DNA of 64,000 nt from Escherichia phage UE-S1: sequence record ON568341.1; one strand, written 5' to 3'. Position 1 is the stretch's first letter, and each line of letters opens with the position of its first letter. The notes under the pieces were generated by a model. That model was not told the DNA's origin, searched no databases, and saw only the letters and a program-made list of their open reading frames with translations. This document shows positions 14,480 to 62,124 of the stretch, in pieces. The position numbers and the translations under genes are program-made.

Positions 14480-16627
14480 ATGCTAAACATTACACGTATA
14501 TCAATGAGGAACTTCTTTTCATTTGGGAACGCACCACAATCAATAGAATTGAATAGTTCTGATATTTCATTAGTTCTTGGGCAAAATAATGATGCAGTTA
14601 TTGAAGGTGGTGATAGCACTGGACGACGAAATGGAGTAGGGAAAAGTGCTATTATTCAAGGATTAGTTTTTGGCTTATTTGGGAAAAGTATTGGTAATGA
14701 TATTAAAATTCCCAACCTAGTCAACAAAACTAATGGCAAAAATTGTGAAGTAGTTATAGAGTTTGAAAAAGATGGTGTGCAATATATAGTTGAGCGTGGG
14801 AGAAGTCCTACGTATTTCAATTTTATCACATTAGGAAAAGATAATAAGATTGAAGATGAATCGAGAGGTGAAAAAAAAGACACACAAGAAGATTTGAATG
14901 AAATTCTTGGAATATCTCAATTATTATTTGAACATATTGTAGTTCTTAATGCGAACGTAGAACCGTTTTTGGCTTTATCATCTCAAAAACAACGTGATAT
15001 GATAGAAGAACTTCTTGGAATAACACAGTTGACTGAAAAAGCTGAAATTCTAAAGGAGATGTACAAGGATACTAAACGTTTAGCCGAACAAGAAAAGTTC
15101 AAAAATGAAACTGTGGCTGCAAGCAATGAACGCATTCAAAAAAGTATTGAAGTACTTCAAGAACAGGCTAACCAATTTGAGATTGATAAAAGTAATAGAG
15201 TATCTAAGCTAAATGAAGAGTTGAATATATATAAAACTTTAGATTTCAATGATCTCTACCAAGCTGCTGAAGAGAAAGAGAAAGCTCTTATTCATAACGC
15301 AAAGCGTGGTGAAATTGAACGCCGTGTACAAGAGTTGGCTTTAAAATATGATGCTTATGAACGTGAACTTGAAACGTCCAAGCGAGTGTTAAATCTAAGC
15401 ATTGATAATTTAAAAACGATTGATATTAGTTCGGAATTGGAAAATCACAAGGAGTTGGAAATATGGAAACAGTTAGAGGCTATTCTTAAAGAGAATAATA
15501 ATCAAAAACGTTTCAAAGAACAAAAGCTCAACTCACTAAAAGTTGCGTTGAATGGATATAAATGTTCAATTAATACTGAAATCGATAAATTATCAACAGT
15601 TGAAAGCAGTAAATGTCCACTTTGTATGTCTGATTTGGAACATAACGAACATACATCTTCAATTAAAGACAAAATTCAAAGTTCTATTAGTGATCTTCAA
15701 ACCAAAATTGATAGTTCTTCTTCAGAAATTGAAACATTACTTAAAGAAATTGAGAGTATTGAGATTTTTGATATGCCACCTAAACCAGTGACATACTATA
15801 ATACACTTTCAGAAGCACAAATGCATGAACATAAGCTTCAAGAACTGATTAAAAAGAGCGAAGAAGAACCAATAAACATCTATGCTAACGAACTTATGTC
15901 ATCATATGATGAACTTAACTCATATGAACTAATGGAAGTACCAGATACATTAAACAAGTACGAAGTTAAAGAGCTAGAAATGACCGTAAGCTCGTTATCA
16001 CAGCAATTAGAACGTGAATTGAAGACTACTAACACTTTTATTAGCCAAATTAACACCCTTAAGACAGATTCTTTAGTTACAATAGACTATAGTGACTATA
16101 ATAATCTTGATAAAATGTCAAATCACCAAGATTTTTTGGTTAAATTACTATTGAACAAGGATTCTTATGTCCGTAAGCGTATTATTGAGCAAAATATCTC
16201 ATATTTGAATACACGACTTCAGTATTATATCGATATGTGCGGTTCTGAGCACAATGTTGTCTTTTTGAATGATTTGAGTGTTGAAATTGAGAAAAGTGGG
16301 CAGTACTTTGACTATAAACAGCTTAGTAGGGGTGAGCGTACAAGGGTAAACATCGCATTATCTTGTGCTTTCCGTGATACATATGAGTCATTATACCAAA
16401 GTATTAATATTCTTATCATTGATGAGATGATTGACCAAGGTCTTGACTCAAGTGGTGTTCTACGTGTGTGGTCTATCTTCCAAGATATGGCTGCTGTACG
16501 TGGTAAGAATGTTTATGCTATTTCCCACAGAGAAGAGTTACTTTCTAAGACTGAAAAAATCCTCAAAGTTGTTAAAGAGGACGGATTCAGTACTGTTGAA
16601 TATGCAACTCTTGATGATGTTTTCTAA
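14480..16627 (+). CDS. Recombination nuclease ATPase gp46 (Rad50/SbcC-like)
   Basis: Walker A GRRNGVGKS, long coiled-coil, CxxC zinc-hook (CPLCMSD), Walker B/D-loop LIIDEMIDQGLD. Confidence 0.9.
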   Translation: MLNITRISMRNFFSFGNAPQSIELNSSDISLVLGQNNDAVIEGGDSTGRRNGVGKSAIIQGLVFGLFGKSIGNDIKIPNLVNKTNGKNCEVVIEFEKDGVQYIVERGRSPTYFNFITLGKDNKIEDESRGEKKDTQEDLNEILGISQLLFEHIVVLNANVEPFLALSSQKQRDMIEELLGITQLTEKAEILKEMYKDTKRLAEQEKFKNETVAASNERIQKSIEVLQEQANQFEIDKSNRVSKLNEELNIYKTLDFNDLYQAAEEKEKALIHNAKRGEIERRVQELALKYDAYERELETSKRVLNLSIDNLKTIDISSELENHKELEIWKQLEAILKENNNQKRFKEQKLNSLKVALNGYKCSINTEIDKLSTVESSKCPLCMSDLEHNEHTSSIKDKIQSSISDLQTKIDSSSSEIETLLKEIESIEIFDMPPKPVTYYNTLSEAQMHEHKLQELIKKSEEEPINIYANELMSSYDELNSYELMEVPDTLNKYEVKELEMTVSSLSQQLERELKTTNTFISQINTLKTDSLVTIDYSDYNNLDKMSNHQDFLVKLLLNKDSYVRKRIIEQNISYLNTRLQYYIDMCGSEHNVVFLNDLSVEIEKSGQYFDYKQLSRGERTRVNIALSCAFRDTYESLYQSINILIIDEMIDQGLDSSGVLRVWSIFQDMAAVRGKNVYAISHREELLSKTEKILKVVKEDGFSTVEYATLDDVF

Positions 16628-16639
16628 TTAAAAGATAAA

Positions 16640-16662
16640 GGGAGCCTTAGCTCCCTTTTTTT
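16640..16662 (+). terminator. Rho-independent terminator after gp46 (overlaps the stop of the convergent minus-strand gene)
   Basis: gggagc-ctta-gctccc followed by T7. Confidence 0.7.
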
Positions 16663-17138
16663 ACATCAACCATATTTAATTTACCGTCCTTAATCAGCTT
16701 TCTAGCTTGTTTTGCACGAGTAGTAGTGTTACTGCCAGGGACAACTCCGAACCCTTCCAGAATCTCGTTTTGCTGCGTTGCTGGGAGCCTTTTAAATTTA
16801 TTAGTATCCACTGTTAGTGCCGTGTGATGTATAACTTGCTCTTCTGGTGGAATATTATTGTTCTTTTCAAGGTAGTCAGCAAGGTTGCGTAGTACTTCAT
16901 GCAATGGCTTATCTGTTAAATGACTAAGACAGCGTTTAAATGAATTTGCAACCCTTCCTTCCCATCCATTCACCTCATTTTGAAGAACCTGTCTACAATG
17001 TTGATTTCCACCATGATAGTGATCCAGAACTGGTTTAGTTATTTTTATGCCTATGATGGGGTCAATGCCATTTTGTTTATTTAGCAATTCAGTTCGATAG
17101 TTTGCAGCATCCTTACTATCTTTTAATCTTTTTTTCAT
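16647..17138 (-). CDS. Putative recombination endonuclease VII-like protein (163 aa)
   Basis: Segment LDHYHGGNQHCRQVLQNEVNGWEG resembles the EndoVII LDHDH…CN…EG core; size close to T4 gp49; neighbourhood of gp55 as in T4. Canonical Cys ligands not all obvious. Confidence 0.45.
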   Translation of the reverse strand: MKKRLKDSKDAANYRTELLNKQNGIDPIIGIKITKPVLDHYHGGNQHCRQVLQNEVNGWEGRVANSFKRCLSHLTDKPLHEVLRNLADYLEKNNNIPPEEQVIHHTALTVDTNKFKRLPATQQNEILEGFGVVPGSNTTTRAKQARKLIKDGKLNMVDVKKGS

Positions 17139-17227
17139 AATTCCTCACCAAACTATTTGTCATCACAATATTTATAGATTAGTTATTTGCAATATTTTAA
17201 GTACTTAATGAATATTTTATAAAAATA

Positions 17228-17257
17228 GTGAGACAACTTTAAAATTTGTGCTATAAT
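17228..17257 (+). promoter_or_regulatory. Promoter (GTGAGACAA-N15-TGCTATAAT) driving the ORF-free locus
   Basis: Same box and spacing as the primase promoter at 56742-56771. Confidence 0.5.
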
Positions 17258-17263
17258 ATTTGT

Positions 17264-17736
17264 TGTAGTAATGACAATCCTGTTGAATGCAGAAATGCAT
17301 ATAAATGAGAACCTGATCCTATCGAAAATGTAGATGGCAGATGAGCAGTTCAACAGTGCGATGAGCAGAAGAAACCCGTCAGATGTGGGCATAGTTTGAA
17401 CCCCTCACGGCAATGCGGCTCAATAAAGAACTCCGATAAGCATACAGAGAGTTCCTAGATAGACATATAAGGATCGCACCTTACCAGATTTGCTAAGGGA
17501 GTTTATTAAGTGATTTTAATAAACAGCCTGAAGTTTGATTGTATAGACTTTCAGGTGAGTGTCAGGATGATTAAGACTGACGACCGTTGCATATGACCGT
17601 GATAGGGAGAAACCGAGCAACCCGCTTCCGTTTGCGATTGATCTTTTTACAATATAGATCCGTCCAAAATTCACGATACAATAAATGCTGAAACCATCAG
17701 CGTCAAGAAATAGAGACTTCATTGTCTCTTTTTTAT
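17264..17736 (+). ncRNA. Candidate structured non-coding RNA (about 470 nt), class unknown
   Basis: Bounded by promoter 17228-17257 and terminator 17712-17736; no plus-strand ORF of 60 aa or more; visibly higher GC than flanks; several local stem-loops (e.g. cccctgcgggggg at 17748-17760 just downstream). Confidence 0.3.
17712..17736 (+). terminator. Rho-independent terminator ending the ORF-free transcript
   Basis: agagac-ttcatt-gtctct followed by T6. Confidence 0.6.
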
Positions 17737-17951
17737 TGTCTTCATTCCCCTGCGGGGGGATGAAAATGTCCTCAACAAATCCCGTCAAGTATTAAATCTT
17801 TTAAAGTTCTTTATAATTAATTTAATGAAATGAATATGAGTTACGTAGTAACGAATATTCTTCAGCTAACGAATGAAATGAGTTAGATGAATCCAATAAT
17901 ATTAAAATTAATTCTTCCATAATTCAATTCAAATAATTCTGTAGTTTAATG

Positions 17952-17979
17952 AAAAAAAAAACCAGCAACAATGTGCTGG
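17952..17979 (-). terminator. Rho-independent terminator of the minus-strand operon ending at 17991
   Basis: Hairpin ccagca-acaatg-tgctgg preceded on plus strand by A10 (U-run on minus transcript). Confidence 0.65.
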
Positions 17980-17990
17980 TCGTGTGGGAT

Positions 17991-18200
17991 TTAGTGCTTC
18001 TCGTTTTGTTTTTTAATTTTTTTATTAAAAGACTTAACTAATAAGTCTCTATCTATTAATGGCATATTAAGAAGTGTTCCGTAATCAATATTATCCATAT
18101 ACACAGAACACTCCATTAGTGCATTTTTGATTTCTGACTTATTCAGTTCTATCTCCTTCAGTACTTCTTGTATTTCTTCAGGAGATGACTGGAGAAGCAT
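17991..18200 (-). CDS. Hypothetical protein (69 aa)
   Basis: Start overlaps upstream stop (TAATG coupling); followed by terminator. Confidence 0.4.
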   Translation of the reverse strand: MLLQSSPEEIQEVLKEIELNKSEIKNALMECSVYMDNIDYGTLLNMPLIDRDLLVKSFNKKIKKQNEKH

Positions 18201-19036
18201 TACTCGAAAAAATGACTAGGATCATATTTTAGTCCATCAATTTCCCATTGATGATTACATCCATCACACTCAACTTCCATACTATGCGATACTCCAATTT
18301 CAAGTACTTCATCCATTTTTTCACGAATTAGTTTAAGAACTCCTTTTGATTGTTGTCCAAGCCACTCATTAATGAATTCTTTTTCAACTACTTCATCACC
18401 ATCTGGAGTGATGATTTTTGCAATAACTCCACCAATCATATCAAAGTTTAGTTGTGCCATATTTTCAAATACTTCAGAAAATATTTTTACTTTTTCGTCT
18501 TGTTCAATCTCAGCAGTTTCTAGAAACTTAGTTTTCTGCTGCTCACTGAACATACGCTCAGCAAACGATGAATATTCTTTCCATGTTAGTGGTCTAAACT
18601 CTAAACGTAGTCCATTATCTAAATCAATAGATGGGATTTCTTCGAATGCTTGTGCAGTTTCAAGAAGATATGATAGATTACGTTCAAAACGACCTTCTTT
18701 TTCACATTCAGGACATACAGCGTTAATATCATATGTTTCTTCTTTAGATGCAACTTTAATAGCAATAAGAAGCATTTCAACGTCATTTACATATAACTCA
18801 TCAGCATCAATAACATTAGGAACACAGTTTTCAATGACACGTGATACTGCATCGCCGTTTAGTAACATATCTGGTGTATTGAGTGTCATTTCATCACGTG
18901 CACTACGTGCACAAACGCCACATTTGACACCTTTTGGACCTAAAACTCCGTCTTTATAAGGAATAATGCCGTTAGTAACTAATTTTGTACTGATCTCTTC
19001 AATTTTAGTGTACTTAGCAAGTGGATTCATAGCCAT
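18200..19036 (-). CDS. Hypothetical zinc-ribbon protein (278 aa; CxxC pairs at N-terminal, central and C-terminal positions)
   Basis: CGVC…CPEC…CDGC cysteine pairs; divergent from the plus-strand late operon. Confidence 0.45.
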   Translation of the reverse strand: MAMNPLAKYTKIEEISTKLVTNGIIPYKDGVLGPKGVKCGVCARSARDEMTLNTPDMLLNGDAVSRVIENCVPNVIDADELYVNDVEMLLIAIKVASKEETYDINAVCPECEKEGRFERNLSYLLETAQAFEEIPSIDLDNGLRLEFRPLTWKEYSSFAERMFSEQQKTKFLETAEIEQDEKVKIFSEVFENMAQLNFDMIGGVIAKIITPDGDEVVEKEFINEWLGQQSKGVLKLIREKMDEVLEIGVSHSMEVECDGCNHQWEIDGLKYDPSHFFE

Positions 19037-19127
19037 TTTTGTTAAATCTCCATGTAATAAATGTGTTTATAGTATTTATGACCCCAATAAAAATTAAATA
19101 AACCATTTTTTATAATCACAATAGTTT

Positions 19128-24376: not shown

Positions 24377-25000
24377 ATGAGTAGTATGATACGTGAATGG
24401 TCTTCATTCAATGATTCTAAAGTTGTTTTGGAACATCGTGATAATGGGTTTGGTGGGCGTGATTGTTACCTTCGTGGTATTGCAATTCAAGCAGACCAAC
24501 GCAATTTGAACGAGAGAATTTACCCTTTATCTGAAATTACAAGAGCAGTAAATAATATGAATCAGCGTTTAGCTAAAGGTGAAAGTATTCTTGTTGAATG
24601 TGACCATCCAGAAACACTGACTATTAATTTAGACCGAGTAGCAGCAATGATTACTAAGGTTTGGATGGAAGGTGCAAATGGTATGGCTGAAATCAAATTA
24701 CTTGATACTGCACATGGTCAGAATATCCGTAAAATGCTAGAGGCTGGTGTAAAACTTGGTGTAAGTTCTCGCGGTTCCGGTAACGTAGATTATAATGGAA
24801 TAGTTTCTGATTTTGAAATTATCACTATTGATATTGTTGCTCAACCTAGTGCTCCAGAAGCATACCCAACAGCGGTATTTGAATCTCTGATGAGTAAGTA
24901 CGGATCACCTTGTAATGGTTCTAAAAAAATCACTGAATCTAAAAAAGTAAATAATTTAGATTCTGAAATATACGATTTTTTCAAGAAATTAAAAGGTTAA
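24377..25000 (+). CDS. Prohead core protease, gp21-like (207 aa)
   Basis: Size and synteny (immediately upstream of scaffold and major capsid genes). Confidence 0.6.
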   Translation: MSSMIREWSSFNDSKVVLEHRDNGFGGRDCYLRGIAIQADQRNLNERIYPLSEITRAVNNMNQRLAKGESILVECDHPETLTINLDRVAAMITKVWMEGANGMAEIKLLDTAHGQNIRKMLEAGVKLGVSSRGSGNVDYNGIVSDFEIITIDIVAQPSAPEAYPTAVFESLMSKYGSPCNGSKKITESKKVNNLDSEIYDFFKKLKG

Positions 25001-25011
25001 CATTTTAAAAA

Positions 25012-25019
25012 TATAAATA
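25012..25019 (+). promoter_or_regulatory. Late promoter TATAAATA upstream of scaffold gene
   Basis: Exact TATAAATA followed by hairpin and RBS AAAGGAGAG. Confidence 0.5.
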
Positions 25020-25066: not shown

Positions 25067-26182
25067 ATGTCTAAATTAGAAAAGCTTCTAAAAGAATCAT
25101 CTCTTTCTGATGAGGCAAAACAGCTAATTCAGGAAGCATGGAATGAAGAAAAGAATACACTAGCCGCAGAGATGCGTGAAGAAATGAAAGGCCGTTATCA
25201 GCAAGATTTGGCTGAATTAACCGAAGGGTTGAACACTATGGTTACTCAAGTCATTGCTGAAGAAATGGGTGCTGTATATGAAGAGAAAAAACGTCTTGTT
25301 GAAGACCGTGTAACTCTACGTAAAACACTAAGCAATTTCTCTGCGTTTTCAAATTCTGTTTTGGCTGAAGAAGTTAAACAAATGCGTAAAGAGCGTAAGC
25401 ATCTGCATGAATGCATGGGTAAATTCGTTAATTTTTCTAACGGTATCCTAGCAGAAGAACTAAAAGAATTCCACACAGAAAAACGTCAACTGGTTGAAGC
25501 TCGTGTAAAATTACTTGCAGAAGGTTCACGTCAAATTGCTGAAGCTCGTAATAACTTCATCAAACGTACATCTGAAAGTGCTGCTAAATATATTGCAGAG
25601 ACAACACAGAAGAATCTATATGCGTTAAAACAAGATCTAGTGGAAGCGAAACAAAATATGTTTGGTCGTAAAATCTTTGAAGCATTTGCTCAAGAATTTA
25701 ATGTCAAACAATTCAATGAAAATTCATTGCTACGTTCACTAACTGAAACAATTAAATCTAAAGAAGATGAAATTGATCAAGTTAAGCAAGAACTACATGA
25801 AACTGTTAATGCGGTTAAAGCTGCTAAAACTAAACTACGTATTATGGAAGATGCACAAGCCCGTAATGCGATTATGTCAGAACTAGTAAAACCACTAACT
25901 GCACAGCAAAAACAAATTATGGAATCCCTTCTAGCAACTTCACCTACTGAAAAGCTTAAAGAAGATTTCAGTAAGTACCATAAGTCAGTACTTAACGGTA
26001 CTAAAGTAAATGAATCTGCTACCACTCGTCAAGCAGTTCAGTCTTCCGCTAAGAAAACTCTTGCAGAAGGTAAAGTGATCACTGGCAACCGTCAGGCTAT
26101 TGTTGAAAGCGAAGAAATGACCGCTGACGATATGGCATTCCTAAAAGAACTCGATGTTCTTTCGGGTATCAATAAAAAATAA
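25067..26182 (+). CDS. Prohead scaffold protein, gp22-like (371 aa, coiled-coil)
   Basis: Charged, helix-prone, Glu/Lys/Ala-rich; directly upstream of major capsid gene. Confidence 0.6.
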   Translation: MSKLEKLLKESSLSDEAKQLIQEAWNEEKNTLAAEMREEMKGRYQQDLAELTEGLNTMVTQVIAEEMGAVYEEKKRLVEDRVTLRKTLSNFSAFSNSVLAEEVKQMRKERKHLHECMGKFVNFSNGILAEELKEFHTEKRQLVEARVKLLAEGSRQIAEARNNFIKRTSESAAKYIAETTQKNLYALKQDLVEAKQNMFGRKIFEAFAQEFNVKQFNENSLLRSLTETIKSKEDEIDQVKQELHETVNAVKAAKTKLRIMEDAQARNAIMSELVKPLTAQQKQIMESLLATSPTEKLKEDFSKYHKSVLNGTKVNESATTRQAVQSSAKKTLAEGKVITGNRQAIVESEEMTADDMAFLKELDVLSGINKK

Positions 26183-26220: not shown

Positions 26221-26228
26221 TATAAATA
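26221..26228 (+). promoter_or_regulatory. Late promoter TATAAATA for the major capsid gene
   Basis: Exact TATAAATA 46 nt upstream of ATG 26274; RBS AAGGAG. Confidence 0.6.
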
Positions 26229-26273: not shown

Positions 26274-27449
26274 ATGTCACAACTACTAAATGAATCCAAA
26301 TGGGTAGCAGTAAAAGAGAAACTAGTTGAAGGTCTACAGGGTACTCGTAAGTCTGTAATGGAAACTGTTCTTGATAACCATCGTAAAGTTATGCTAACTG
26401 AATCCGCAACTTCTGGTGCAACTACCGCTGGTAATATCGCTACACTAAACAAAGTGATTCTACCAATTATGCGTCGTGTAATGCCAACTGTTATTGCTAA
26501 CGAAATTATCGGTGTTCAGCCTATGACTGGCCCAGTCGGTCAAATTCACACCCTACGTGTACAATATGCTGATAATGCACCTGGTGTTATCGCTGGTGAA
26601 GAAATGCTTTCTCCATACAAAATCGCTAAATCCTACTCTGGTGAACTAAATTCTGATAACAGCAATCCTCAAGCTGCTCCTACTAGCCAACTAGAAGGTA
26701 CTATGGGTCGTCGCGTTAACATCCGTATTCTACGTGAAACAGTTGAAGCGAAATCTCGTCGTCTATCTGCACGTTGGACTGTTGAATCTGCACAAGATGC
26801 TCAATCCCAACATGGTGTTGACGTTGAAGCAGAACTAATGGCTGCAATCGCTCAAGAAGTTACCGTAGAAATCGACCAAGAGCTACTAAGCCGTCTACGT
26901 GCACTACCTGGTGCTGCTGCTGTAACTTATGACCAATCTAAAGTTACTGGTGTTGCAACCTTCGTTGGTGATGAGCACGCTGCTCTAGCAACTCTAATTA
27001 ACCGTCAAGCAAACGAAGTTGCTCGTCGTACTAAGCGTGGTGCTGCAAACTGGGCTGTTGTTTCCCCAACTGCACTAACCATTCTACAATCTGCTACTAC
27101 TTCTAGCTTTGCACGTACCACTGAAGGTACTTTCGAAGCACCAACTAACGTTAAGTTTGTAGGTACTCTAAATAGCACTATGCGTATTTTTGTTGATACT
27201 TATGCAAGTGATTCAGAAGATATTCTAATTGGTTATAAAGGTAATGCAGAAACTGATGCTGGTGTGTTCTATTGCCCATACATCCCACTAATGGCATCCG
27301 GTACTGTAATGGACCCTAACACTGGTGAATTGGTCACAACCTTCCTCACTCGTTATGGTTACGTACAACTCACTGACTCAACCAGTAGCTTGGGTAATGC
27401 TGCGGATTACTACAGCAAAATCGCTATCAAAAACGTTACTTTCATGTAA
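26274..27449 (+). CDS. Major capsid protein, gp23-like (391 aa)
   Basis: Blocks GVQPMTGPVGQIHTLR, IEAKSRRL and GYKGNAETDAGVFYCPYIPL match T4 gp23 as recalled; strong RBS and late promoter. Confidence 0.9.
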   Translation: MSQLLNESKWVAVKEKLVEGLQGTRKSVMETVLDNHRKVMLTESATSGATTAGNIATLNKVILPIMRRVMPTVIANEIIGVQPMTGPVGQIHTLRVQYADNAPGVIAGEEMLSPYKIAKSYSGELNSDNSNPQAAPTSQLEGTMGRRVNIRILRETVEAKSRRLSARWTVESAQDAQSQHGVDVEAELMAAIAQEVTVEIDQELLSRLRALPGAAAVTYDQSKVTGVATFVGDEHAALATLINRQANEVARRTKRGAANWAVVSPTALTILQSATTSSFARTTEGTFEAPTNVKFVGTLNSTMRIFVDTYASDSEDILIGYKGNAETDAGVFYCPYIPLMASGTVMDPNTGELVTTFLTRYGYVQLTDSTSSLGNAADYYSKIAIKNVTFM

Positions 27450-27492: not shown

Positions 27493-27518
27493 AGGGACTC
27501 TTCGGAGTCCCTTTTTTG
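27493..27518 (+). terminator. Rho-independent terminator after capsid gene
   Basis: agggactc-ttcg-gagtccct followed by T6. Confidence 0.75.
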
Positions 27519-27603
27519 GTTTTTATATAACTAAAAGATCTTGACAGTACTTAACAATTGTAGTATCATACGTGTAAATAAAGAAAAGAACTCGGAGAAA
27601 ATC

Positions 27604-29199
27604 GTGTTAGAAGAAATCAAGAAGTTTTTATCAGAGAAAAATGTTCGTGGTGTTAAATCTGCTCTGCAAGCAAAATCTGTATACATTGAATTCCTGCGAG
27701 AGATGTTTGGTGATATCGATCTTAATGAAATGATTTATATGGTATTGAATGATATTACTTCAGTGCCGAATGCTGAATGTGGTGACAAAGCTAAGTTTAT
27801 AAGTATTACCGAAGGATATTCTTACAAGTGCAATAAACCATTTCAAGGAAAAGGAAAATGCCTTATCTGTTGCTCCGCAGTTGCTAGGAAACGTAAAGAA
27901 ACTTACAAAGAAAAAACTGGTTATGATAACCCGGCACAGAATCCAGAAATTCAAAAGAAAATAGGGTATACCAATGAACAACGTTATGGCACTCGTATTG
28001 CTCAACAATCTGAACAAGTAAAGCAGAAATCAATAGAAACTAATATTAAAAAGTATGGTGTTGTTCATCCATCACAGTTGGAAAGTAATAAACAGCAACG
28101 TTTACAAACGGTACAAGAAAAGTATGGTATCAATAATGTATGGCAACTTAATAAAGGTCTTAGTGCACGTTATGAACAGTTTAAAACACGATTTGAACAG
28201 GATGGTAAATTTACTCTTTTAAGTGATGAATCCCATTATGATAATAGCAATGACGCAACTCATGCAATCATGCACTGGAAATGTAATGAATGTGGTAATG
28301 AGTTTGATAAAGTTGCTCTTTGCTTACGCTGCCCTAAGTGTGAACCATATTCATCCAGTACTGAAGAAGTAAATCTTTATAATTACATTACCTCTATCTA
28401 TAGTGGTGTGGTTATTCAAAACAGCCGCAACATCATCAAAGGTAATGAGATTGATATCTTCATCCCAGAATTGAAACTTGGTATTGAGTTCAATGGTGAG
28501 TATTGGCATCGTGATGAAGTTCGTGGTAAAAACTATCATCAATCCAAATACTTCAAAATGAAGGAAGCAGGATACAAACTTATCACTATCTATAGTAATG
28601 AATGGTCAAATAAAACTGAAATTGTTAAGAATCGTTTGAAAAGTTTGATTAGTGTGGATAGTAAAATCTATGCTCGTAAGTGTGAAGTTAGATTGGTTGC
28701 CCATGAAGAATGTGATAAATTTTTGTATGAACATCATATTCAAGGACCATGCCAATCATCAATCAAACTTGGACTTTACTATAATGATGATTTGGTTGCT
28801 TTGATGACATTTGGTGCACCACGATTTAACAAGCAGTATGAATATGAATTACTGCGTTATTGTTCTAAAGGAACAGTTGTTGGGGGTGCATCGAAACTGT
28901 TAAAACATTTTGAACGTATGTATCTTCCTAAATCTCTTCTTTCATACGCCGATATGAACTGGAGTACTGGTAATTTGTATGAAAAAATTGGTTTTACTTT
29001 AGAAGAAGTAACTCAACCTGGTTATTTTTACTATGATAGAAAAAACGAAGTTGTTTATTCTCGCCATCAATGCCAAAAACAAAAACTTATTAAAAAATAT
29101 AATTTTGATAGTTCTATGACAGAGAAGGAAATGACAAAAGAATTAGGATACTTTAGAATCTATGATTGTGGTAACTTAGTTTATAAAAAGATTTACTAA
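27604..29199 (+). CDS. Multidomain homing-endonuclease-like protein, paralog 1 (GTG start; Cys clusters, tandem KYGV repeats, PD-(D/E)XK-like core, conserved C-terminal domain)
   Basis: Start set at GTG 27604 (RBS GGAG) by alignment with paralog at 62121 (VLEEIKKFL vs MIIDELKKFL); repeats …QEKYGINNVWQL…; core IDIFIPELKLGIEFNGEYWH; C-terminal block YELLRYCSKGTVVGGASKLL shared with paralog. Confidence 0.5.
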   Translation: MLEEIKKFLSEKNVRGVKSALQAKSVYIEFLREMFGDIDLNEMIYMVLNDITSVPNAECGDKAKFISITEGYSYKCNKPFQGKGKCLICCSAVARKRKETYKEKTGYDNPAQNPEIQKKIGYTNEQRYGTRIAQQSEQVKQKSIETNIKKYGVVHPSQLESNKQQRLQTVQEKYGINNVWQLNKGLSARYEQFKTRFEQDGKFTLLSDESHYDNSNDATHAIMHWKCNECGNEFDKVALCLRCPKCEPYSSSTEEVNLYNYITSIYSGVVIQNSRNIIKGNEIDIFIPELKLGIEFNGEYWHRDEVRGKNYHQSKYFKMKEAGYKLITIYSNEWSNKTEIVKNRLKSLISVDSKIYARKCEVRLVAHEECDKFLYEHHIQGPCQSSIKLGLYYNDDLVALMTFGAPRFNKQYEYELLRYCSKGTVVGGASKLLKHFERMYLPKSLLSYADMNWSTGNLYEKIGFTLEEVTQPGYFYYDRKNEVVYSRHQCQKQKLIKKYNFDSSMTEKEMTKELGYFRIYDCGNLVYKKIY

Positions 29200-29216
29200 A
29201 ATACGGGAGAATACGG

Positions 29217-29567
29217 ATGTTAACTGTATACAAATTTAACAAAGAAGAGTACTTAAAGAGTCAGTACTCAAATATAGAAATAAATGTTCCTTATGGTACG
29301 TTAGTTGGATATGATGAAGCCACTGAAACATTGTATTATAATGATGATAGATTGGATTATAGTTTAGATTCTTTCATAGAAGATATACTTAATACACAAA
29401 CTGAAGATATGTTGTATGAAGAATACATCGATCATTATAGAGAACGTATGTCGGTGCTGCATTCTGATGCTCCTGTACTAAACATAGCACAAGAACCATC
29501 GGAATTTCAGCCACATAATCCTTTTCAACGTTTAATTGATATTGGTTTAAAATTCACTATTAGTTGA
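29217..29567 (+). CDS. Hypothetical protein (116 aa)
   Basis: ORF with RBS GGGAGAA. Confidence 0.4.
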   Translation: MLTVYKFNKEEYLKSQYSNIEINVPYGTLVGYDEATETLYYNDDRLDYSLDSFIEDILNTQTEDMLYEEYIDHYRERMSVLHSDAPVLNIAQEPSEFQPHNPFQRLIDIGLKFTIS

Positions 29568-29606
29568 TAGATAAATATCTCCATATTAATGATGGAGATT
29601 GAATCT

Positions 29607-29915
29607 ATGTCACAGATATGTTATGTTATAATAAACTCTGCATGGCCTGACTATGTTAAGATTGGTTTCACTTCTAAATCTGAAATGACAGAGCGTTTGA
29701 GAACGTATCAGACAGCTACCCCGTTTCGTGATTTTGAAGTTTATCATGAAGTTCACTTTGAAGACGCACGTTTAGCTGAAAAAGAGATACATAAAAGGCT
29801 TAAACAAATGAATGCAACTAGACAACCAAACACGGAGTGGTTTAAAATGTCTAAAAAAATAGCAGCAAACATCATTGATTCTGTGTGGGATGATATGGAT
29901 AACGACTTGCTATAG
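29607..29915 (+). CDS. GIY-YIG-superfamily / T5orf172-like domain protein
   Basis: Pattern CYVIINSAWPDYVKIGFTSK…RLRTYQTATPFRDFEVYH…EWF typical of T5orf172-type domains; GGAG RBS before ATG 29607 (ORF track start 29589). Confidence 0.45.
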   Translation: MSQICYVIINSAWPDYVKIGFTSKSEMTERLRTYQTATPFRDFEVYHEVHFEDARLAEKEIHKRLKQMNATRQPNTEWFKMSKKIAANIIDSVWDDMDNDLL

Positions 29916-29955
29916 GAATAAATATAGTATATATTAATCATAAAGGGATTTATAC

Positions 29956-31566
29956 ATGAGCATAAGTTTTAATAACCCATTGGATACAATGACCAGTACT
30001 GGTGCTAATGGATCTTTAGAACTAATAGTGCTTGGTGGTACACCAACTAACCCAAGACCTATTCGTTTTAATTCGTCATCAGTTATTATACCAGTAAAAA
30101 CACTACCTACTGGTGAGCAAGGTGCAATGGTTTTTGATAGAAATGAATTAGTTTTGAAGTATCATAACGGTACAAGTTGGATTGCAGTGTACGATAATGA
30201 TACTATTTTGGAGCCAATTAGGATTTCACTAGATGAAGTAAACAGAAAACTAAATTTAAAGGTAGAAAGTGTAACATATAGTAGCAGTTCTGTTCCAAGT
30301 GCAAGTATAAGTGGAACTAATTTAAATATTGTATTCCCTACTGTGTCTACGGGTGGTTCTGGCCCTACTGGACTTTATACTTCACTAAAACCTGGGGCTA
30401 TTACACAATATTCATTGACTTCTGGTCAATCGGTTGCTAGTATACGCGAACAAATGTCAGGACAATCGAATGGACAAAGTGGACGAAACGGTTCACAAGG
30501 TGCTCCGTGGAAAACGTCAGACGGTTGGTGTTTTGCTGATGGTATGTGGTGGCAATGGGAGGGGGAAAATGGTACAATTACCAAACAAGTACCAAACCTT
30601 AACCAAAACGCGTATTTAAAAGGTATATCCACATCGGGTGTAACTAAAACTGATAGTGTTATTGGTAGTAGCGGTAATATTAGCGGCACAGTATTAAGTG
30701 TTGCCCAGTTACCATCACACTCATTTAGTTTTAGTGGGACCACTAGTGCTGCTGGTCGTCACGGTCATAGTCAGGCACTAAAAGGTAATGACCGTAGTGG
30801 TCTAAATGCAATAACATCTAGTAGAGATAATGGCATCCCAACTGTAATCAGTAATATTAATGAAGCACCCGACCATGTTCACTCATTTAGTGGAAACACA
30901 AACACACTTGGTGGAAATCAGCCACATTATCATGGCATTAGTAACATTGATGTGGAACACTTAAACGTCGCCTACCTATATAACATTGCTGAATCTAACG
31001 TCGCATTGAGCGAAAAAGTTGCAAATAAACGTTATGTACTAAAAACTGGTGATACAATGACTGGTTCATTGACTATTGCAAACAGTGCATCCATACAGTC
31101 AAATGATACATCATTAGTTCTTTATTTCCGCAATGCAAGTGGTGGTGAACGTGCAGCGGTATATCATAACTCATCAAACAATACCTTGAGATTACGTTCC
31201 GGTGGTGCTGAAGTAGCTGTAAACTCTTCTGGTAACTTATCTGCTCCATCTTTAACTGTTTCTACTAACTCAGCTACTGTTGGTGGCAAAAATATTGTTC
31301 GTTCTATTAACGGAAATGCAGCAGATGGTAATGGTAATGTTACATTACAAATTAGTGCTAATAATGTACAAAGTGTACGTTTGAGTGCAAGAATTGAAAC
31401 TGGTAAAATGTCTGACAAGTCGTGGACATATACACCGGAGGGTTCCTTTATGGATGGAATATATCTTTCTGTAAATGGTAGCTCTGGTACACACGTCGAA
31501 CGCCTAAGTTATCGTTTTATTCAAGTACAAATTAATGGCAACTGGGAAACTGTACGTCCACAATAA
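29956..31566 (+). CDS. Tail-fibre-like protein with His-rich (HxH) segment (536 aa)
   Basis: Fibre hallmark KTGDTMTGSLTI; HxH boxes (GRHGHSQ, PDHVHSF, PHYHGI); Ser/Thr/Gly/Asn-rich. Confidence 0.6.
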   Translation: MSISFNNPLDTMTSTGANGSLELIVLGGTPTNPRPIRFNSSSVIIPVKTLPTGEQGAMVFDRNELVLKYHNGTSWIAVYDNDTILEPIRISLDEVNRKLNLKVESVTYSSSSVPSASISGTNLNIVFPTVSTGGSGPTGLYTSLKPGAITQYSLTSGQSVASIREQMSGQSNGQSGRNGSQGAPWKTSDGWCFADGMWWQWEGENGTITKQVPNLNQNAYLKGISTSGVTKTDSVIGSSGNISGTVLSVAQLPSHSFSFSGTTSAAGRHGHSQALKGNDRSGLNAITSSRDNGIPTVISNINEAPDHVHSFSGNTNTLGGNQPHYHGISNIDVEHLNVAYLYNIAESNVALSEKVANKRYVLKTGDTMTGSLTIANSASIQSNDTSLVLYFRNASGGERAAVYHNSSNNTLRLRSGGAEVAVNSSGNLSAPSLTVSTNSATVGGKNIVRSINGNAADGNGNVTLQISANNVQSVRLSARIETGKMSDKSWTYTPEGSFMDGIYLSVNGSSGTHVERLSYRFIQVQINGNWETVRPQ

Positions 31567-31576
31567 GGAGTGTGTG

Positions 31577-32086
31577 ATGCAATTAACAAATTTTAAGATG
31601 TATGACAAAGAAGGTGGTAATTCTAATTCATTATATATGATTTCTGATGAAGGTATGGATTGGTATGATTCTCGTGGATTGTTTGACATTAATAAAGCAA
31701 AATTTATGTATGATAATAATGGTCTGATTGTTTCAGCATCATACAACATTCACGAATTAGTACCTTTGGGTTTTAGCGTTGCTGAAATAGATTATGATGG
31801 GGATATCAATAAACTATATGGTATGGTTTATGATGGTAACACTATTAGTGAATATGTTGAAACTAAAGAAGAAAAAAATGAACGCTTAAAAAATGAATTG
31901 GCAAATTTAAAATATATGGCAATCCAAGAAATCAGCCACTTAAAAACCGCTATGGATCTTGGTTTAGCAACGGATGAAGAATCAGTATTGTTTGGGAAAT
32001 TAAAAGAATATGTAACACAATTATCTTCAATTAAACCAGCAGATATGATTAAGAAAACATTTTCATTCCCAGTTAAACCTGAATAA
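31577..32086 (+). CDS. Putative tail fibre assembly chaperone (169 aa)
   Basis: Immediately downstream of fibre gene with GGAG RBS; function by position only. Confidence 0.3.
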   Translation: MQLTNFKMYDKEGGNSNSLYMISDEGMDWYDSRGLFDINKAKFMYDNNGLIVSASYNIHELVPLGFSVAEIDYDGDINKLYGMVYDGNTISEYVETKEEKNERLKNELANLKYMAIQEISHLKTAMDLGLATDEESVLFGKLKEYVTQLSSIKPADMIKKTFSFPVKPE

Positions 32087-32123: not shown

Positions 32124-32158
32124 GTCATCTCACTAATGGTAGTGAGATGACATTTTTT
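32124..32158 (+). terminator. Rho-independent terminator after the fibre/chaperone pair
   Basis: 11-bp stem gtcatctcact / agtgagatgac followed by T6. Confidence 0.7.
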
Positions 32159-32183: not shown

Positions 32184-32486
32184 ATGGCTAAATCTAAAAA
32201 AGAAGTTAAAGTAGAAATTCGTGATCTAAACGATGAACAACGTAAACGTCTCGGTGATGCACTTAATAACATTGTTGTACAACTTACTTTCATTGATGAT
32301 ACCAAAGCATCCTTGTCAGATTTTGTTTCTAGTATTTCAGATGAACTAGGTATCAATGCATCTGATATCAAGCAAGCTGCACAGCGTATGTACAAAGGTG
32401 ATTACTTTGATAAACAAAGCAAACTAGATAACATCGAAACTATCCTAAGTGTTACTAATAATCTACCACAAGCAGATGATTACTAA
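32184..32486 (+). CDS. Hypothetical protein (100 aa)
   Basis: ORF with RBS GGAGATA upstream; followed by hairpin 32510-32536. Confidence 0.4.
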   Translation: MAKSKKEVKVEIRDLNDEQRKRLGDALNNIVVQLTFIDDTKASLSDFVSSISDELGINASDIKQAAQRMYKGDYFDKQSKLDNIETILSVTNNLPQADDY

Positions 32487-32509
32487 TTTCTAATAAAATA
32501 TATTCAATG

Positions 32510-32536
32510 GCCTCCAGTGACGGAGGCTTTCTTTTT
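32510..32536 (+). promoter_or_regulatory. Hairpin plus U-run immediately upstream of the DNA polymerase RBS (terminator and/or translational operator)
   Basis: gcctcc-agtgac-ggaggc followed by tttcttttt, ending about 30 nt before ATG 32566. Confidence 0.4.
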
Positions 32537-32565: not shown

Positions 32566-35500
32566 ATGTATATCGATGCTTATATGGAACGTAAACGTAC
32601 TGGTGATATTCTTCATGTTGTGGAACGTAAAAATGGTAAACGCATTCTACGTGAATTGGACCCAGTATATGAATATTATGTTGAATCACCACAAGGAACA
32701 CATAAAACTGTTTATGGTACAATGGCTAAACATTTTGAGTTTCAAACCCAAGCTCAAATGAATAAAAGTGTAGAGAAACACAAAAGTGAAGGTCTACGTA
32801 TTTTTGAAAGTGATTGTAATATCATATTCAAAACCTTAGCTAAAGAATATATGGGGAAAGGTTCACCAGATTTGAATATCGTATTCTTCGATATTGAGAC
32901 TGACTTCCATAAGAAATTTGGTTATGCTCCACCATCGGACCCATTTAACCGCGTAACTGCTATTTCTTTATATCAATCATGGACTGGAAAAGATTATGTA
33001 CTTACTTTACCACCAGTTGATATGGAAATTTATGAAGCACAAGATATTGTTCGTAAACTAAATGAAGAAACAAATGATCCTAACAGTACTGTGATTCTAT
33101 ATACAGACGAAAAGGAAATGTTTATGGAATTCTTTAGTTTAATTGATGACTCTGATGTTATTTCAGGATGGAATAGTGAATTTTTTGATATTCCATATAT
33201 GATCAATCGAACTAAAAAAATCTTCAATGAAGCAACGACTGCTCGTTGGTGTTTATGGAATAAAAAACCAAATTCACGTGAAGCCGATAACTTTGGAAAA
33301 ACTGTACAAACTTATGATCTGGTAGGACGTGTTCATCTAGATTACTTGGCTTTGTATAAAAAACATGCTGGGCAAGTTGAACAATCTTATAAACTAGATT
33401 ATATTGCTGAAAAAGTAACAAAAGAAAATAAAGTATCTTATGAAGGTTCATTGGATAAACTTTATAGAGAAGATTACATTACTTTCTTGCGTTATTCTAA
33501 ACAGGATAGTATTCTTCTTAAAAAGATTGATGCTAAATGTGACTATATCAACCTACACAATCGTCTTGCACATAAAGAGTGTGTACTTATTAGTACAACA
33601 ATGGGTTCAGTAGCACTAATTGACACTGCTATTATTAACTTAGCACATAGCCGTGGTGAAGTTGTTTTTAACAAAGCACCTAAAGACGATGTTGAGTTTG
33701 ATCCAGAAATGGAATATTATAGTGATGATGGTGAAGATGAAGAAGAGAAAATCAGTGCAAAAGCCGCAGGTGCATGGGTACAAGATCCAGTTTTGGGACT
33801 TGTAAGTGACCTTGGATGTACTGACTTTAACTCTCTTTATCCTACAGTTCTACGTACATTGGGAATGAGCACAGAATGTATTCTTGGTCAATTACGTCAA
33901 GATTATACGGATGCGTATCTTGCAGCTAAAATTCAGGAACAGAAAAATAAATCCAAATCTAGATCATTTGAACCAGACTGGACTGCCGCATGGCATGGTT
34001 TGTTTGCTGCTGTTGAGTTCACTATGGTTCATGAAAAGTCAGAAGAAACATTGATTGTAGATTTAGAAGATGGGAGTTCTTTTAAAGCAACTGGAAAAGA
34101 ACTATATGATATTATTTTTGCAGAAGATAGTACTATTGTTCTAAGTGCAAATGGAACCTTGTTTGATAAATCAAAATCTGGTGTAATTCCAGATATTCTT
34201 ACACAATGGTATTCTGAACGTAAAGCTCAACAAAAAATGGTTATTGATTACAAACATATGTGTACTGATGGTTGGGAGTTTAATGGTCATGAAAAAGTTG
34301 AACCACTATTGACAAACTATACCCCAGGAACTATGTTTAGAACTAATATCCATGATAACGATCCTGTATACTTACTTCGCAAAGAAATTGGCAAAGGACA
34401 ATGGGATGAAGTTGCTAAGTTGATTGTAGAAAATGGATTAGTACTTAAAGATGGTCGCATTTACTGTCCTAAAGAAGAAAAAGATTACTTCAAACAACGT
34501 AGTGCTTTCTGGAAACAGAACCAACAGATTCGTAAAATTCTTCTAAACAGTCTATATGGTGCACTACTGAACAAAGGTTCTCGTTTCTTTGATAAGCGTT
34601 TGGGTCAATCTGTCACATTAACTGGTCGTTCGATGACTAAGCATATGGCAAGTCGTATCAATGAAATTACAACTGGTGTATATATTCATCACGGCGGTTC
34701 TGTGATCTATGGGGACACTGACTCTGTGTACTTTAGTGTAACGCATTATCTAAAAGAACAAGGCATTCCATATAATTTATCTAAAGAAGAAATTGTTGAT
34801 ATGTATATTAAAATTGGTGAAGAAGTTGGTGAATCTTTTCCATCATTTATGCATCAAATGTTCAACACTGGTATTGAAAAAGGTAAGATTGTTGGGGCAG
34901 ACCTTGAGATGGTTGGTTCCCGTGGATTATTCTTGAAGAAAAAACGTTATGCAATTTTGAAGTACTGGGAAGATGGATTTCGCAAAGATATTGATGGTAA
35001 ACCTGGTGAAATCAAAGCTATGGGTCTTGAAATTAAACGTTCAGATACACCAAAATACATCCAGAACTTCCTAGAAGAGACTCTAATTGCACTACTGGTA
35101 GGTGAGAATGAACAACAGTTAAAACAGCGTGTACGTGCTTTTAAGGACGTATTTAAAGATATGCCTGTGCATGAAAAAGGCTCACCAAAAACTGTAAAAA
35201 ACTACACAAATTTAGAGGCCGAATATCAACTAACAGGTAAGTGTAAGGTTGGGCACGTTCTTGCTGGTATTCAATGGAACCGCTTACGTGAAGTTTATGA
35301 TGATAAAACTGTCCCAGAAGTAACTGATGGAACAAAAGTAATTGTTTGTAACTTAAAAGATAATCCAATGGGGATTAAAGCAGTTGGTTATCCAATTGAC
35401 TGTGTTGAGTATCTACCTGAATGGTTCTTAGAACTACCATTTGACACTGAAAAAATGGAAGAGATTGTTCTAACTAAAAAATTAGAGAATATTTTTGGTA

Positions 35501-35571
35501 TTTTAGATATGGATATTGGTATTCATGAAAAAAGTACTGCATCAGTAAACAATGGATTCTTCACTTGGTAA
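32566..35571 (+). CDS. DNA polymerase, family B, gp43-like (1001 aa)
   Basis: Exo I motif FFDIETDF; Pol motif C YGDTDSVYF; Pol motif A-like LYPTVLRTLGMS; RBS AAGGGA. Confidence 0.95.
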   Translation: MYIDAYMERKRTGDILHVVERKNGKRILRELDPVYEYYVESPQGTHKTVYGTMAKHFEFQTQAQMNKSVEKHKSEGLRIFESDCNIIFKTLAKEYMGKGSPDLNIVFFDIETDFHKKFGYAPPSDPFNRVTAISLYQSWTGKDYVLTLPPVDMEIYEAQDIVRKLNEETNDPNSTVILYTDEKEMFMEFFSLIDDSDVISGWNSEFFDIPYMINRTKKIFNEATTARWCLWNKKPNSREADNFGKTVQTYDLVGRVHLDYLALYKKHAGQVEQSYKLDYIAEKVTKENKVSYEGSLDKLYREDYITFLRYSKQDSILLKKIDAKCDYINLHNRLAHKECVLISTTMGSVALIDTAIINLAHSRGEVVFNKAPKDDVEFDPEMEYYSDDGEDEEEKISAKAAGAWVQDPVLGLVSDLGCTDFNSLYPTVLRTLGMSTECILGQLRQDYTDAYLAAKIQEQKNKSKSRSFEPDWTAAWHGLFAAVEFTMVHEKSEETLIVDLEDGSSFKATGKELYDIIFAEDSTIVLSANGTLFDKSKSGVIPDILTQWYSERKAQQKMVIDYKHMCTDGWEFNGHEKVEPLLTNYTPGTMFRTNIHDNDPVYLLRKEIGKGQWDEVAKLIVENGLVLKDGRIYCPKEEKDYFKQRSAFWKQNQQIRKILLNSLYGALLNKGSRFFDKRLGQSVTLTGRSMTKHMASRINEITTGVYIHHGGSVIYGDTDSVYFSVTHYLKEQGIPYNLSKEEIVDMYIKIGEEVGESFPSFMHQMFNTGIEKGKIVGADLEMVGSRGLFLKKKRYAILKYWEDGFRKDIDGKPGEIKAMGLEIKRSDTPKYIQNFLEETLIALLVGENEQQLKQRVRAFKDVFKDMPVHEKGSPKTVKNYTNLEAEYQLTGKCKVGHVLAGIQWNRLREVYDDKTVPEVTDGTKVIVCNLKDNPMGIKAVGYPIDCVEYLPEWFLELPFDTEKMEEIVLTKKLENIFGILDMDIGIHEKSTASVNNGFFTW

Positions 35572-61450: not shown

Positions 61451-62124
61451 ATTACGAATATGATCAACAATCAGTCAATCAGATGGCTGATTTGTTAAGT
61501 GGTCTTAATGATATTGAAGCTGGTGAGACACACAATGCGGCAGGTGTACCATATAAAGCTAGTGGTGATATTGGTGCAATGACCGCTATTTTAACTTCAT
61601 TAAATGAAGCGGGTATGGACTATGGTACTGAACCCGAACCTACACATCCGAACGTAGTGCCATATAACGCACCATTTAACGAACACATGAATGGACAACC
61701 ATATGTTCAGCCTATGGTACATCGTTCACCTCCTAAACCGAAAACCAACTGGAGTTTAGTTGAAGAAAAGGTACAAGGTACGAAATCTACTAAAGTTTAT
61801 AGCATTAAGTGTAACCATAGTTCACAAATTATCATGAATAATATTATGATGTATGAAGCAGCACTTACTTTAGTTAACCTTCTTAACGAAGGGAGAATGT
61901 TGACAGATGCTAAAATTCTTGGTATAATTAGTTCGGGTTTGCAATATACAAATGTTATAAGCGAAGCATTAAAAGCAGCCCATAAACGCCAACGTGTACT
62001 TAATGAATCAAAGTATGATGAAGCAAAAGATTTAGATATAATCATTGCAGAAAAGAAAGCAGAAGCTTATAAATTAAAAGAGCGTGTGTTAAACTTTCTT
62101 AAAAATGAAGGGTATATCACTTGA
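61447..62124 (+). CDS. Hypothetical protein (225 aa)
   Basis: ORF. Confidence 0.4.
   Translation: MNYEYDQQSVNQMADLLSGLNDIEAGETHNAAGVPYKASGDIGAMTAILTSLNEAGMDYGTEPEPTHPNVVPYNAPFNEHMNGQPYVQPMVHRSPPKPKTNWSLVEEKVQGTKSTKVYSIKCNHSSQIIMNNIMMYEAALTLVNLLNEGRMLTDAKILGIISSGLQYTNVISEALKAAHKRQRVLNESKYDEAKDLDIIIAEKKAEAYKLKERVLNFLKNEGYIT

Follow-up and report, generated by a model that had tools for sequence, protein, structure and literature searches.

In phages, homing endonuclease genes form clusters next to essential genes, those of the capsid among them (Barth, Dunham and Seed 2023, PMC10448857), and phage enzymes of the Hef type are listed in the EDxHD/Vsr-like family, whose prototype is I-Bth0305I (PMC3239194). 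On the side of receptor recognition, gp098 of phage RaK2, which is 100% identical to K64-1 S2-8, has been found in virions and is located by immunogold labelling at the baseplate of contracted particles; an anti-gp098C serum reduces plating efficiency, and a secondary receptor-binding role has been proposed for the protein (PMC10253068). CBB_260 was identified in virions of Pectobacterium phage CBB by mass spectrometry (11 peptides, with the chaperone CBB_261 unlisted), and electron microscopy (EM) of CBB shows six short fibres under the baseplate (PMC5259590). Short baseplate fibres are also visible in EM of phage phAPEC6. Here, we compare these systems with a locus of Escherichia phage UE-S1, at positions 27,604 to 32,086 of a 64,000-nucleotide (nt) stretch of sequence record ON568341.1 (the whole of which is called the window below), where a predicted homing endonuclease gene, two small genes, a tail fibre gene, and a tail fibre chaperone gene lie between the major capsid gene and the DNA polymerase gene.

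The source appears to be an Asteriusvirus-like jumbo myovirus of the 121Q/PBECO4 group: the window DNA is ~90-92% identical to Asteriusvirus Escherichia jumbo phages (121Q, PBECO4, phAPEC6, G17 and others) and matches Mimasvirus and Alcyoneusvirus relatives (Cronobacter, Pectobacterium, and Klebsiella phages) more weakly. We compared the locus across 17 Asteriusvirus loci, the Mimasvirus phages GAP32 and CBB, and Klebsiella phage K64-1, while the occupants of the site just behind the capsid gene, which we call the slot, were counted in 18 genomes, the window included. We read the stretch as three adjacent units, namely a mobile endonuclease cassette, two fixed core genes, and a late fibre-chaperone operon, and give this reading a probability of roughly 0.8. 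The units may be described as follows:

(i) The first unit would be a ~1.7-kb cassette that combines its own sigma70-like promoter with a 531-amino-acid (aa) Hef-like nuclease built on a Vsr-type core, inserted in a hot spot after the capsid terminator. During co-infection, the endonuclease would cut endonuclease-free relatives nearby, and recombinational repair would then copy the cassette in, carrying flanking capsid-gene sequence along.

(ii) The second unit would consist of hyp116, a conserved gene for a 116-aa protein, and a stand-alone T5orf172 gene, both of them fixed at their position across genera and not mobile.

(iii) The third unit would be a late operon, in which a motif of the T4 late promoter type precedes the genes for fibre and chaperone and a terminator follows them. 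The fibre would trimerise, with its conserved N-terminal two thirds attaching to the baseplate and building the shaft, and H324-x-H326, together with two less conserved HxH boxes, would probably staple the trimer via a metal ion. The C-terminal ~115 residues of the fibre would form the receptor-binding tip, which a Mu-gpU-like chaperone would fold and with which that chaperone would co-evolve.

The features on which this description draws are:

27156..27449, plus strand: 3' end of the capsid gene (nt 883-1176), apparently a recombinant patch adjoining the slot, with identity steps against PBECO4 and EC.P1

27493..27522, plus strand: intrinsic terminator of the capsid gene, a GGGACTC-TTCG-GAGTCCC hairpin (27493-27512) followed by a T tract; left edge of the slot

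27541..27569, plus strand: sigma70-like promoter of the endonuclease cassette, TTGACA-17-TATCAT, 11/12 matches

27604..29199, plus strand: predicted Hef-like (EDxHD/Vsr-like) free-standing homing endonuclease gene, 531 aa, GTG start, phrog_3339

29217..29567, plus strand: hyp116, acidic conserved 116-aa protein, phrog_15724 (function unknown), E=9e-57

29607..29915, plus strand: stand-alone T5orf172 (GIY-YIG-related) protein, 102 aa (102-108, given the alternative ATG codons at 29589 and 29592), PF10544, phrog_15085

29917..29924, plus strand: T4-type late-promoter-like motif AATAAATA, 32 nt before the fibre start codon

29956..31566, plus strand: tail fibre, 536 aa, orthologue of RaK2 gp098, K64-1 S2-8, and CBB_260

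31577..32086, plus strand: tail fibre assembly chaperone (lambda Tfa / Mu gpU / P2 gpG family), 169 aa, PF02413, phrog_136

32124..32151, plus strand: intrinsic terminator closing the fibre-chaperone operon, a 12-bp stem followed by a T tract

One line of support for this reading is gene order. The arrangement capsid-slot-hyp116-T5orf172-fibre-chaperone-hyp100-polymerase is kept throughout Asteriusvirus (17/17 loci examined) as well as in GAP32 and CBB, with alternatives of the fibre tip and chaperone that are described separately below. The K64-1 locus retains the capsid gene, a slot open reading frame (ORF), hyp116, the fibre gene, hyp100, and the polymerase gene; a T5orf172 match and a chaperone match were not found at that locus. 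Relative to the nearest relatives, the flanking proteins are 97-100% identical in aa sequence, hyp116 96-99%, the T5orf172 protein 98-100%, the fibre 93%, and the chaperone 86%. At the DNA level, identity to PBECO4 stands at 97-100% over 29377-30000, exceeding that of the polymerase gene, and drops only in the final 400 nt of the fibre gene (79-86%) and in the chaperone gene (82-90%).

An earlier note on this DNA had placed five genes at 27604-32086, with the capsid terminator on one side and the DNA polymerase on the other, all of which are present on the plus strand, and had read them together as a variable island of selfish elements and host-range genes. The comparative genomics check that it proposed found the block conserved and collinear across related phages, the very outcome that the note had named as speaking against its reading, and the island is therefore refuted for the block as a whole. 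Variability holds for the slot after the capsid terminator and for the fibre tip with its chaperone. In the same way, the proposed host-range cassette shrinks to the 3' end of the fibre gene plus the chaperone gene, leaving out hyp116, the T5orf172 gene, and fibre residues 1-420, and the label of selfish element suits only the first gene, the endonuclease, and not the T5orf172 gene, which is fixed and lacks a DNA-binding domain.

Presence/absence variation in the block is confined to the slot, just behind the capsid terminator. This slot is empty in 4/18 genomes, holds a Hef-like gene in 2/18 (the window and ph0011), and holds genes for other proteins in the remaining 12/18. Measured from the capsid stop codon to hyp116, the interval spans 73-118 nt in the empty-slot phages PBECO4, SD-6_S16, fEgEco12, and CMSTMSU, all of which lack the endonuclease gene, ~1.77 kb where the Hef-like gene is present, and 1.03-1.35 kb in the other 12 genomes, whose slot proteins of 307-408 aa fall into at least four sequence groups. 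Eight slot proteins sampled from those 12 genomes all have a T5orf172 domain at the C-terminus, recognised by Pfam in five of them and by alignment in the others, and the Pfam-checked proteins of the 305-368-aa groups also carry treble-clef zinc fingers, the combination of DUF4379 with T5orf172 being seen among them. As in the systems described by Barth, Dunham and Seed (PMC10448857), the same slot in 12/18 genomes holds DUF4379/DUF723/CapR-like zinc-finger plus T5orf172 nucleases beside the capsid gene (domains checked in the sampled members). The hairpin of the capsid terminator is kept in all relatives, and every slot cassette starts just past its T tract; the other cassettes bring promoter-like (-10-like) elements of their own, and empty-slot genomes have none. 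Presence/absence at a fixed site between conserved genes holds for the endonuclease, its flanks being 97-100% identical.

The occupant in the window, which had been noted as resembling a homing endonuclease, matches phrog_3339 'homing endonuclease' with E=3.7e-132, and its ORF covers positions 11-534 of the 536 positions of the PHROG profile. Pfam finds an N-terminal DUF7487 match and a weak REase_MTES_1575 match under the cut-off, and the core weakly matches the catalytic domain of I-Bth0305I (PDB 3R3P, E=5e-3), retaining the equivalents of its Asp, Asn, and His (eiDifip, efNg, ywH). Like Hef-type and EDxHD enzymes, the protein has a core that is putatively Vsr-like, is free-standing, sits between conserved genes, and shows presence/absence polymorphism; unlike them, it is much longer (531 aa), carries an N-terminal DUF7487 region, and leaves the last motif Asp unaligned. 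Homologues are labelled 'Hef-like homing endonuclease' in RaK2, K64-1, PA5oct, Campylobacter phages, and T4-like phages, although the window protein is only 30-37% identical to annotated Hef-like proteins. Its closest same-site relative, and the only one, is the ph0011 copy at 66% aa identity, so that the window appears to contribute a new endonuclease allele.

The start codon given earlier, at 27604, is correct: a GGAG stands 6 nt ahead of this GTG, and alignments with all homologues begin at residue 22 of the longer ORF that opens with TTG. We rejected that TTG, at 27541, as the start on account of these alignments and because it belongs to the -35 hexamer of the promoter-like site. A second Hef-like paralogue lies in the window at ~62199-63815 (plus strand), within an ORF at 62121-63872, and is 37% identical to the gene at 27604-29199 (tblastn E=5e-97); relatives carry 3-5 Hef-like copies per genome.

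Adjoining the slot, the 3' end of the capsid gene appears to contain a recombination breakpoint. Against PBECO4, the capsid gene of the window is 100% identical over nt 491-882 and then only 80-90% identical over the last ~300 nt, and in the last ~175 nt 21 codons differ, every change being synonymous. EC.P1, which belongs to another clade, is 91-97% identical to the window over most of the gene and 99-100% over the last ~196 nt. This pattern is the expected trace of co-conversion during homing, to which we would link it causally. Several observations weigh against the homing account. Across the 18 genomes, capsid 3' haplotype and occupant type do not go strictly together (G17 shares that of fEgEco12, SHEFM2K that of PBECO4, and EC.P1 that of the window), and ordinary recombination could therefore make the mosaic. 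The last Asp of the EDxHD motif aligns to a His in the endonuclease, or else the alignment is shifted, and cutting by the enzyme is a prediction. A strict link between occupant and haplotype looked promising in 8 genomes and was rejected in 18, where only the breakpoint remains.

These points bear on an alternative that we consider unlikely, in which the endonuclease is a decaying or domesticated remnant without homing and the capsid 3' mosaic arose by ordinary homologous recombination between co-infecting jumbo phages. The nearest same-site copy, at a mere 66% identity, suggests long residence, the capsid 3' haplotype is common to a phage with a different nuclease, and one motif residue is unalignable, all of which speaks for a remnant. 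Against it, the ORF spans the PHROG profile at full length, a near-consensus promoter and a Shine-Dalgarno sequence precede it, and its presence or absence among genomes that otherwise agree at 97-100% points to a recent gain or loss. We prefer the reading of the first unit as a mobile cassette.

Phages beyond the 121Q group also have occupants in the slot. In K64-1, this is an ORF of 408 aa (locus L018, 2578-3804), the slot ORF of Turkey5 (L016, 2065-3285) is annotated at 406 aa and measures 408 aa as the longest ATG ORF, and GAP32 has a 77-aa ORF (L020, 3406-3639) that its record describes as similar to the C-terminus of a phage JSE protein. NCBIfam matches were not found for the slot ORFs of K64-1 and Turkey5. 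Occupancy beyond the 121Q group suggests that the hot spot predates the genera. A bolder proposal, which we hold to be rather doubtful, is that the junction between capsid terminator and hyp116 is a shared landing pad on which at least six endonuclease lineages of two superfamilies (Hef/Vsr-like and zinc-finger/T5orf172) displace one another, that their targets lie in the last ~100 bp of the capsid gene, and that synonymous recoding of codons ~350-380 reflects an arms race over target-site immunity, with capsid mosaicism in jumbo coliphages as its result.

The two genes that follow the slot, hyp116 and the T5orf172 gene, appear to be fixed core genes that do not behave as selfish elements. Identity of the hyp116 protein is 72-99% within Asteriusvirus and drops to 47% in K64-1 and to 32-33% in GAP32 and CBB, and the position of its gene is constant throughout. 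Pfam and NCBIfam matches to hyp116 were not found, a homologue search reached Asteriusvirus proteins only and found no distant homologues, and the AlphaFold2 (AF2) model of the protein is unreliable (pLDDT 53). The next gene, described earlier as T5orf172/GIY-YIG-like, indeed matches PF10544 with 50.3 bits against a cut-off of 20, and it occupies the same position in 17/17 Asteriusvirus loci (83-100% identity) and in GAP32 and CBB (68%).

Because the T5orf172 domain (residues 10-97) fills the whole protein, this resident copy has no room for a zinc finger or other DNA-binding domain. It differs in this from the mobile T5orf172 nucleases of PMC10448857, as it lacks a DNA-binding module (CapR, DUF723, or zinc finger) and is fixed rather than patchy, and for these two reasons it belongs to the domain family yet stands outside the mobile endonucleases. 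A comparison with the nuclease domains of the slot enzymes found only general domain motifs in common, and close kinship with the slot nucleases was rejected on that ground. With less weight, one may suppose that a nuclease was domesticated here: the fixed T5orf172 protein, possibly with hyp116 as a companion, would then serve a role that benefits the phage. Candidate routes for the transcription of the two genes are read-through of the capsid terminator or, in the window phage, the cassette promoter.

The fibre and chaperone genes are read as a late operon separate from the endonuclease cassette because they have a conserved late motif upstream and a terminator downstream. In every Asteriusvirus locus, and likewise in K64-1, CBB, and GAP32, the fibre gene is preceded by ATAAATA at an unchanged spacing, the motif taking the exact form TATAAATA in A4 and K64-1 and the form CATAAATA in CBB and GAP32. 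The plus strand of the window contains 16 copies of ATAAATA, and exact TATAAATA recurs on that strand at 25012-25019 and 26221-26228, 55 and 53 nt before the scaffold and capsid start codons, respectively. In the CBB paper, ATAAATA is the predicted late promoter of the phage group (PMC5259590), and the late motifs described here suggest gp55-like late transcription in this group. At the other end of the operon, the terminator is a strong one, and the record of phage G17 annotates a terminator at the equivalent place.

The 536-aa protein, previously called fibre-like, matches phrog_13229 'tail fiber protein' over residues 1-534 (E=1e-263). It is 48% identical to K64-1 S2-8 over residues 1-464 and up to 51% identical to the Mimasvirus proteins GAP32_254 and CBB_260 over its full length (family range 48-51%; CBB_260 50%), and the position of the family between the capsid and DNA polymerase genes is kept in K64-1, GAP32, and CBB. 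With RaK2 gp098/S2-8 and CBB_260/GAP32_254, the window protein shares its family, its gene position, and an invariant H324/H326 and G-D-x-M-x-G. Unlike RaK2 and K64-1, where the fibre ends in Gp53-like_C and there is no separate chaperone gene, the window has a Mu-gpS-like tip and a Caudo_TAP chaperone. By extrapolation from RaK2 gp098, the fibre may act as a secondary receptor binder at the baseplate, and it counts against this assignment that the two proteins are only 48% identical and that gp098 has another C-terminus (Gp53-like_C).

It seems to us quite improbable that the 536-aa protein is instead a 'hairy' whisker fibre of the capsid or sheath, or the distal part of a longer fibre, and not a short fibre of the baseplate. 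The gene does adjoin the capsid module, unassigned trimeric hairs stand on both the capsid and the tail of phAPEC6 and CBB, and the virion protein list of phAPEC6 omits the fibre. That omission is uninformative, however: phAPEC6 (MK817115.1, locus L009, 3951-5558) holds an intact fibre orthologue, 93% identical over 536 aa, that is unannotated in its GenBank record, which lists a 49-aa ORF, gp221c, inside it, so that the phAPEC6 proteome could not have identified the fibre. We accordingly rejected its absence from that proteome as evidence against a structural role. In addition, the RaK2 orthologue has been placed at the baseplate by immunogold (PMC10253068), and Mu-gpS-like tips and gpU-type chaperones are typical of baseplate fibres. 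The short baseplate fibre, with its tip and chaperone, remains our preferred reading, and its parts are:

Fibre residues 1-420: conserved N-terminal part

30760-30768, 30874-30882, and 30925-30933, plus strand: HxH boxes, residues 269-271, 307-309, and 324-326

31048-31065, plus strand: GDTMTG, residues 365-370

31216-31563, plus strand: variable fibre tip, residues 421-536

Divergence and swapping appear to be limited to the last ~70-115 residues of the fibre together with the chaperone. Against PBECO4, fibre residues 1-260 are 97-100% identical and residues 471-536 only 77%; against fEgEco12, the conserved part stands at 83-95% and the end at 53%; and the end falls to 27% against A4 and GAP32. 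Three C-terminal architectures are found among the 120 fibre homologues listed: the window-type tip with a separate chaperone gene; Gp53-like_C (PF21882) with no chaperone gene, as in Turkey3, WPEC5, Turkey5, and K64-1; and a Peptidase_S74 intramolecular chaperone. The window-type tip (residues ~422-533) distantly matches, at 38-44%, fibres of ~140-150-kb myoviruses such as 4MG and PVPSE1, and residues 254-321 are 47-51% identical to proteins of ~86-90-kb phages such as EC6 and HY02. Searches by sequence and profile found no solved structure related to the fibre. In a structural comparison of the fibre model, the top hit for its C-terminal portion is Mu gpS, the protein with which gpU pairs.

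The neighbouring gene, a putative chaperone in the earlier note, matches PF02413 Caudo_TAP with 40.6 bits against a cut-off of 22.1, phrog_136 with E=1e-37 (the alignment beginning at residue 15 of the longer ORF), and Mu gpU (PDB 5YVQ_B) with E=1e-10. Its most likely start is the ATG at 31577. An ATG at 31535, which would overlap the fibre gene, was rejected because an AAGGAG precedes 31577 and the profiles align from there; with the start at 31577, the gene stays clear of the fibre gene, whose stop codon precedes it by 10 nt. The chaperone is homologous to gpU and so resembles the systems of Mu gpS/gpU (PDB 5YVQ, 8JU3), lambda Tfa, P2 gpG, and P1 U (PF02413); as in Mu, the chaperone gene lies immediately 3' of the fibre gene, and the C-terminal model of the fibre is closest to gpS.

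Tip and chaperone change in step. Their identities to the window fall together, from 77/86% in PBECO4 through 53/48% in fEgEco12 to 27/34% in A4, and the chaperone gene is absent where the tip is Gp53-like_C. Fibre residues ~421-536 and the chaperone thus appear to form an exchangeable specificity module, to which the window would add a moderately divergent tip/chaperone allele. In phage A4, a strongly divergent fibre (51% identity) is followed by two chaperone-like genes (locus L005, 7055-7510 and 7711-8208), and only the first 85 residues of the first of them resemble the window chaperone (41%). The tip and chaperone of A4 look like a different module at the same locus.

The GDTMTG and three HxH boxes reported earlier are present, at residues 365-370 and 269-326. 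However, the boxes had been assigned to a receptor-recognition tip, whereas they lie mid-shaft, upstream of GDTMTG and of the ~115-residue variable C-terminal domain, and for this reason we read them as sites of the shaft. In shuffles of the same fibre protein, three or more HxH occur in 0.075% of cases (p ~7.5e-4), and H324 and H326 are invariant in 79 homologues. HxH metal sites (Fe or Zn) are known in the T4 gp37 and gp12 fibres and in the spike tips of P2 and phi92. As in those proteins, HxH recurs here in a presumably trimeric, beta-structured fibre, with one box invariant in the family; unlike in those proteins, the boxes are in mid-shaft and not at the tip. By analogy with the T4 fibres, they are probably structural metal sites of a trimeric shaft. 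On the other side of the balance, metal binding is something we purely infer, the other two boxes are present in ~60% of the 79 homologues and missing in ~40%, the AF2 model of the fibre (a monomer) has pLDDT below 50 at residues 266-304, and searches by sequence, profile, and fold found neither homology to T4 gp37 or gp12 nor similarity to the P2/phi92 spikes.

Very improbable is a last reading, in which the whole 4.5-kb stretch is one horizontally exchanged host-range island whose selfish nucleases mobilise the fibre and chaperone as cargo: although the mobile endonuclease lies 750 bp 5' of the fibre gene, nothing in the region diverges more than the fibre tip and the chaperone, and PMC10448857 reports nuclease genes at boundaries of genetic exchange, the endonuclease is separated from the variable tip by hyp116, T5orf172, and the N-terminal ~420 fibre residues, these intervening parts are at least as conserved as the flanks against the nearest relatives (97-100% aa; 97-100% nt at 29377-30000), gene order is conserved across genera, tip/chaperone divergence is unrelated to the slot (empty-slot PBECO4 and occupied 121Q both stand at 93% for the fibre and 86% for the chaperone), and we found neither a compositional anomaly (GC content of 0.31-0.39 in the block versus ~0.34 in the window) nor meaningful direct or inverted repeats flanking the block or the cassette.

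The genes on either side of the three units are:

24377-25000: prohead protease, upstream of the block

25067-26182: scaffold-like protein, upstream of the block

26274-27449, plus strand: gp23-type major capsid protein, PF07068, E=5.5e-90

32184-32486, plus strand: hyp100, 100-aa protein, downstream of the block

32566-35571: family-B DNA polymerase, downstream of the block

The hyp100 gene stands alone between the terminators at 32124-32151 and 32509-32528, just 5' of the DNA polymerase gene. Its product belongs to phrog_12534, with weak similarity to phrog_639 'transcriptional regulator', and is 84-98% identical in Asteriusvirus, 73% in K64-1, and 52% in GAP32 and CBB. At the scale of the window, GC skew and coding strand flip near 12 kb, with long ORFs on the minus strand before 12.5 kb and on the plus strand after it, and a short minus-strand stretch lies at ~16.6-19 kb (16600-19100); this strand pattern fits divergent transcription modules of the structural region. 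An Rfam scan of the window found no RNA families, a tRNA search of the window found none, and an NCBIfam search with six proteins of the region gave zero matches.

All components of the block belong to known kinds, and the block as such is ordinary. Its value is mostly practical, and the current understanding of phage biology is unchanged by it. The locus does provide a clean natural case of a homing-endonuclease hot spot that admits multiple occupants beside an essential capsid gene, and it allows a 536-aa protein of therapeutic jumbo coliphages of the 121Q/PBECO4 type to be assigned to the family of the RaK2 gp098 baseplate receptor binder. With the specificity module pinned to residues ~421-536 of that protein and the adjoining chaperone, the assignment may be of use for host-range engineering.

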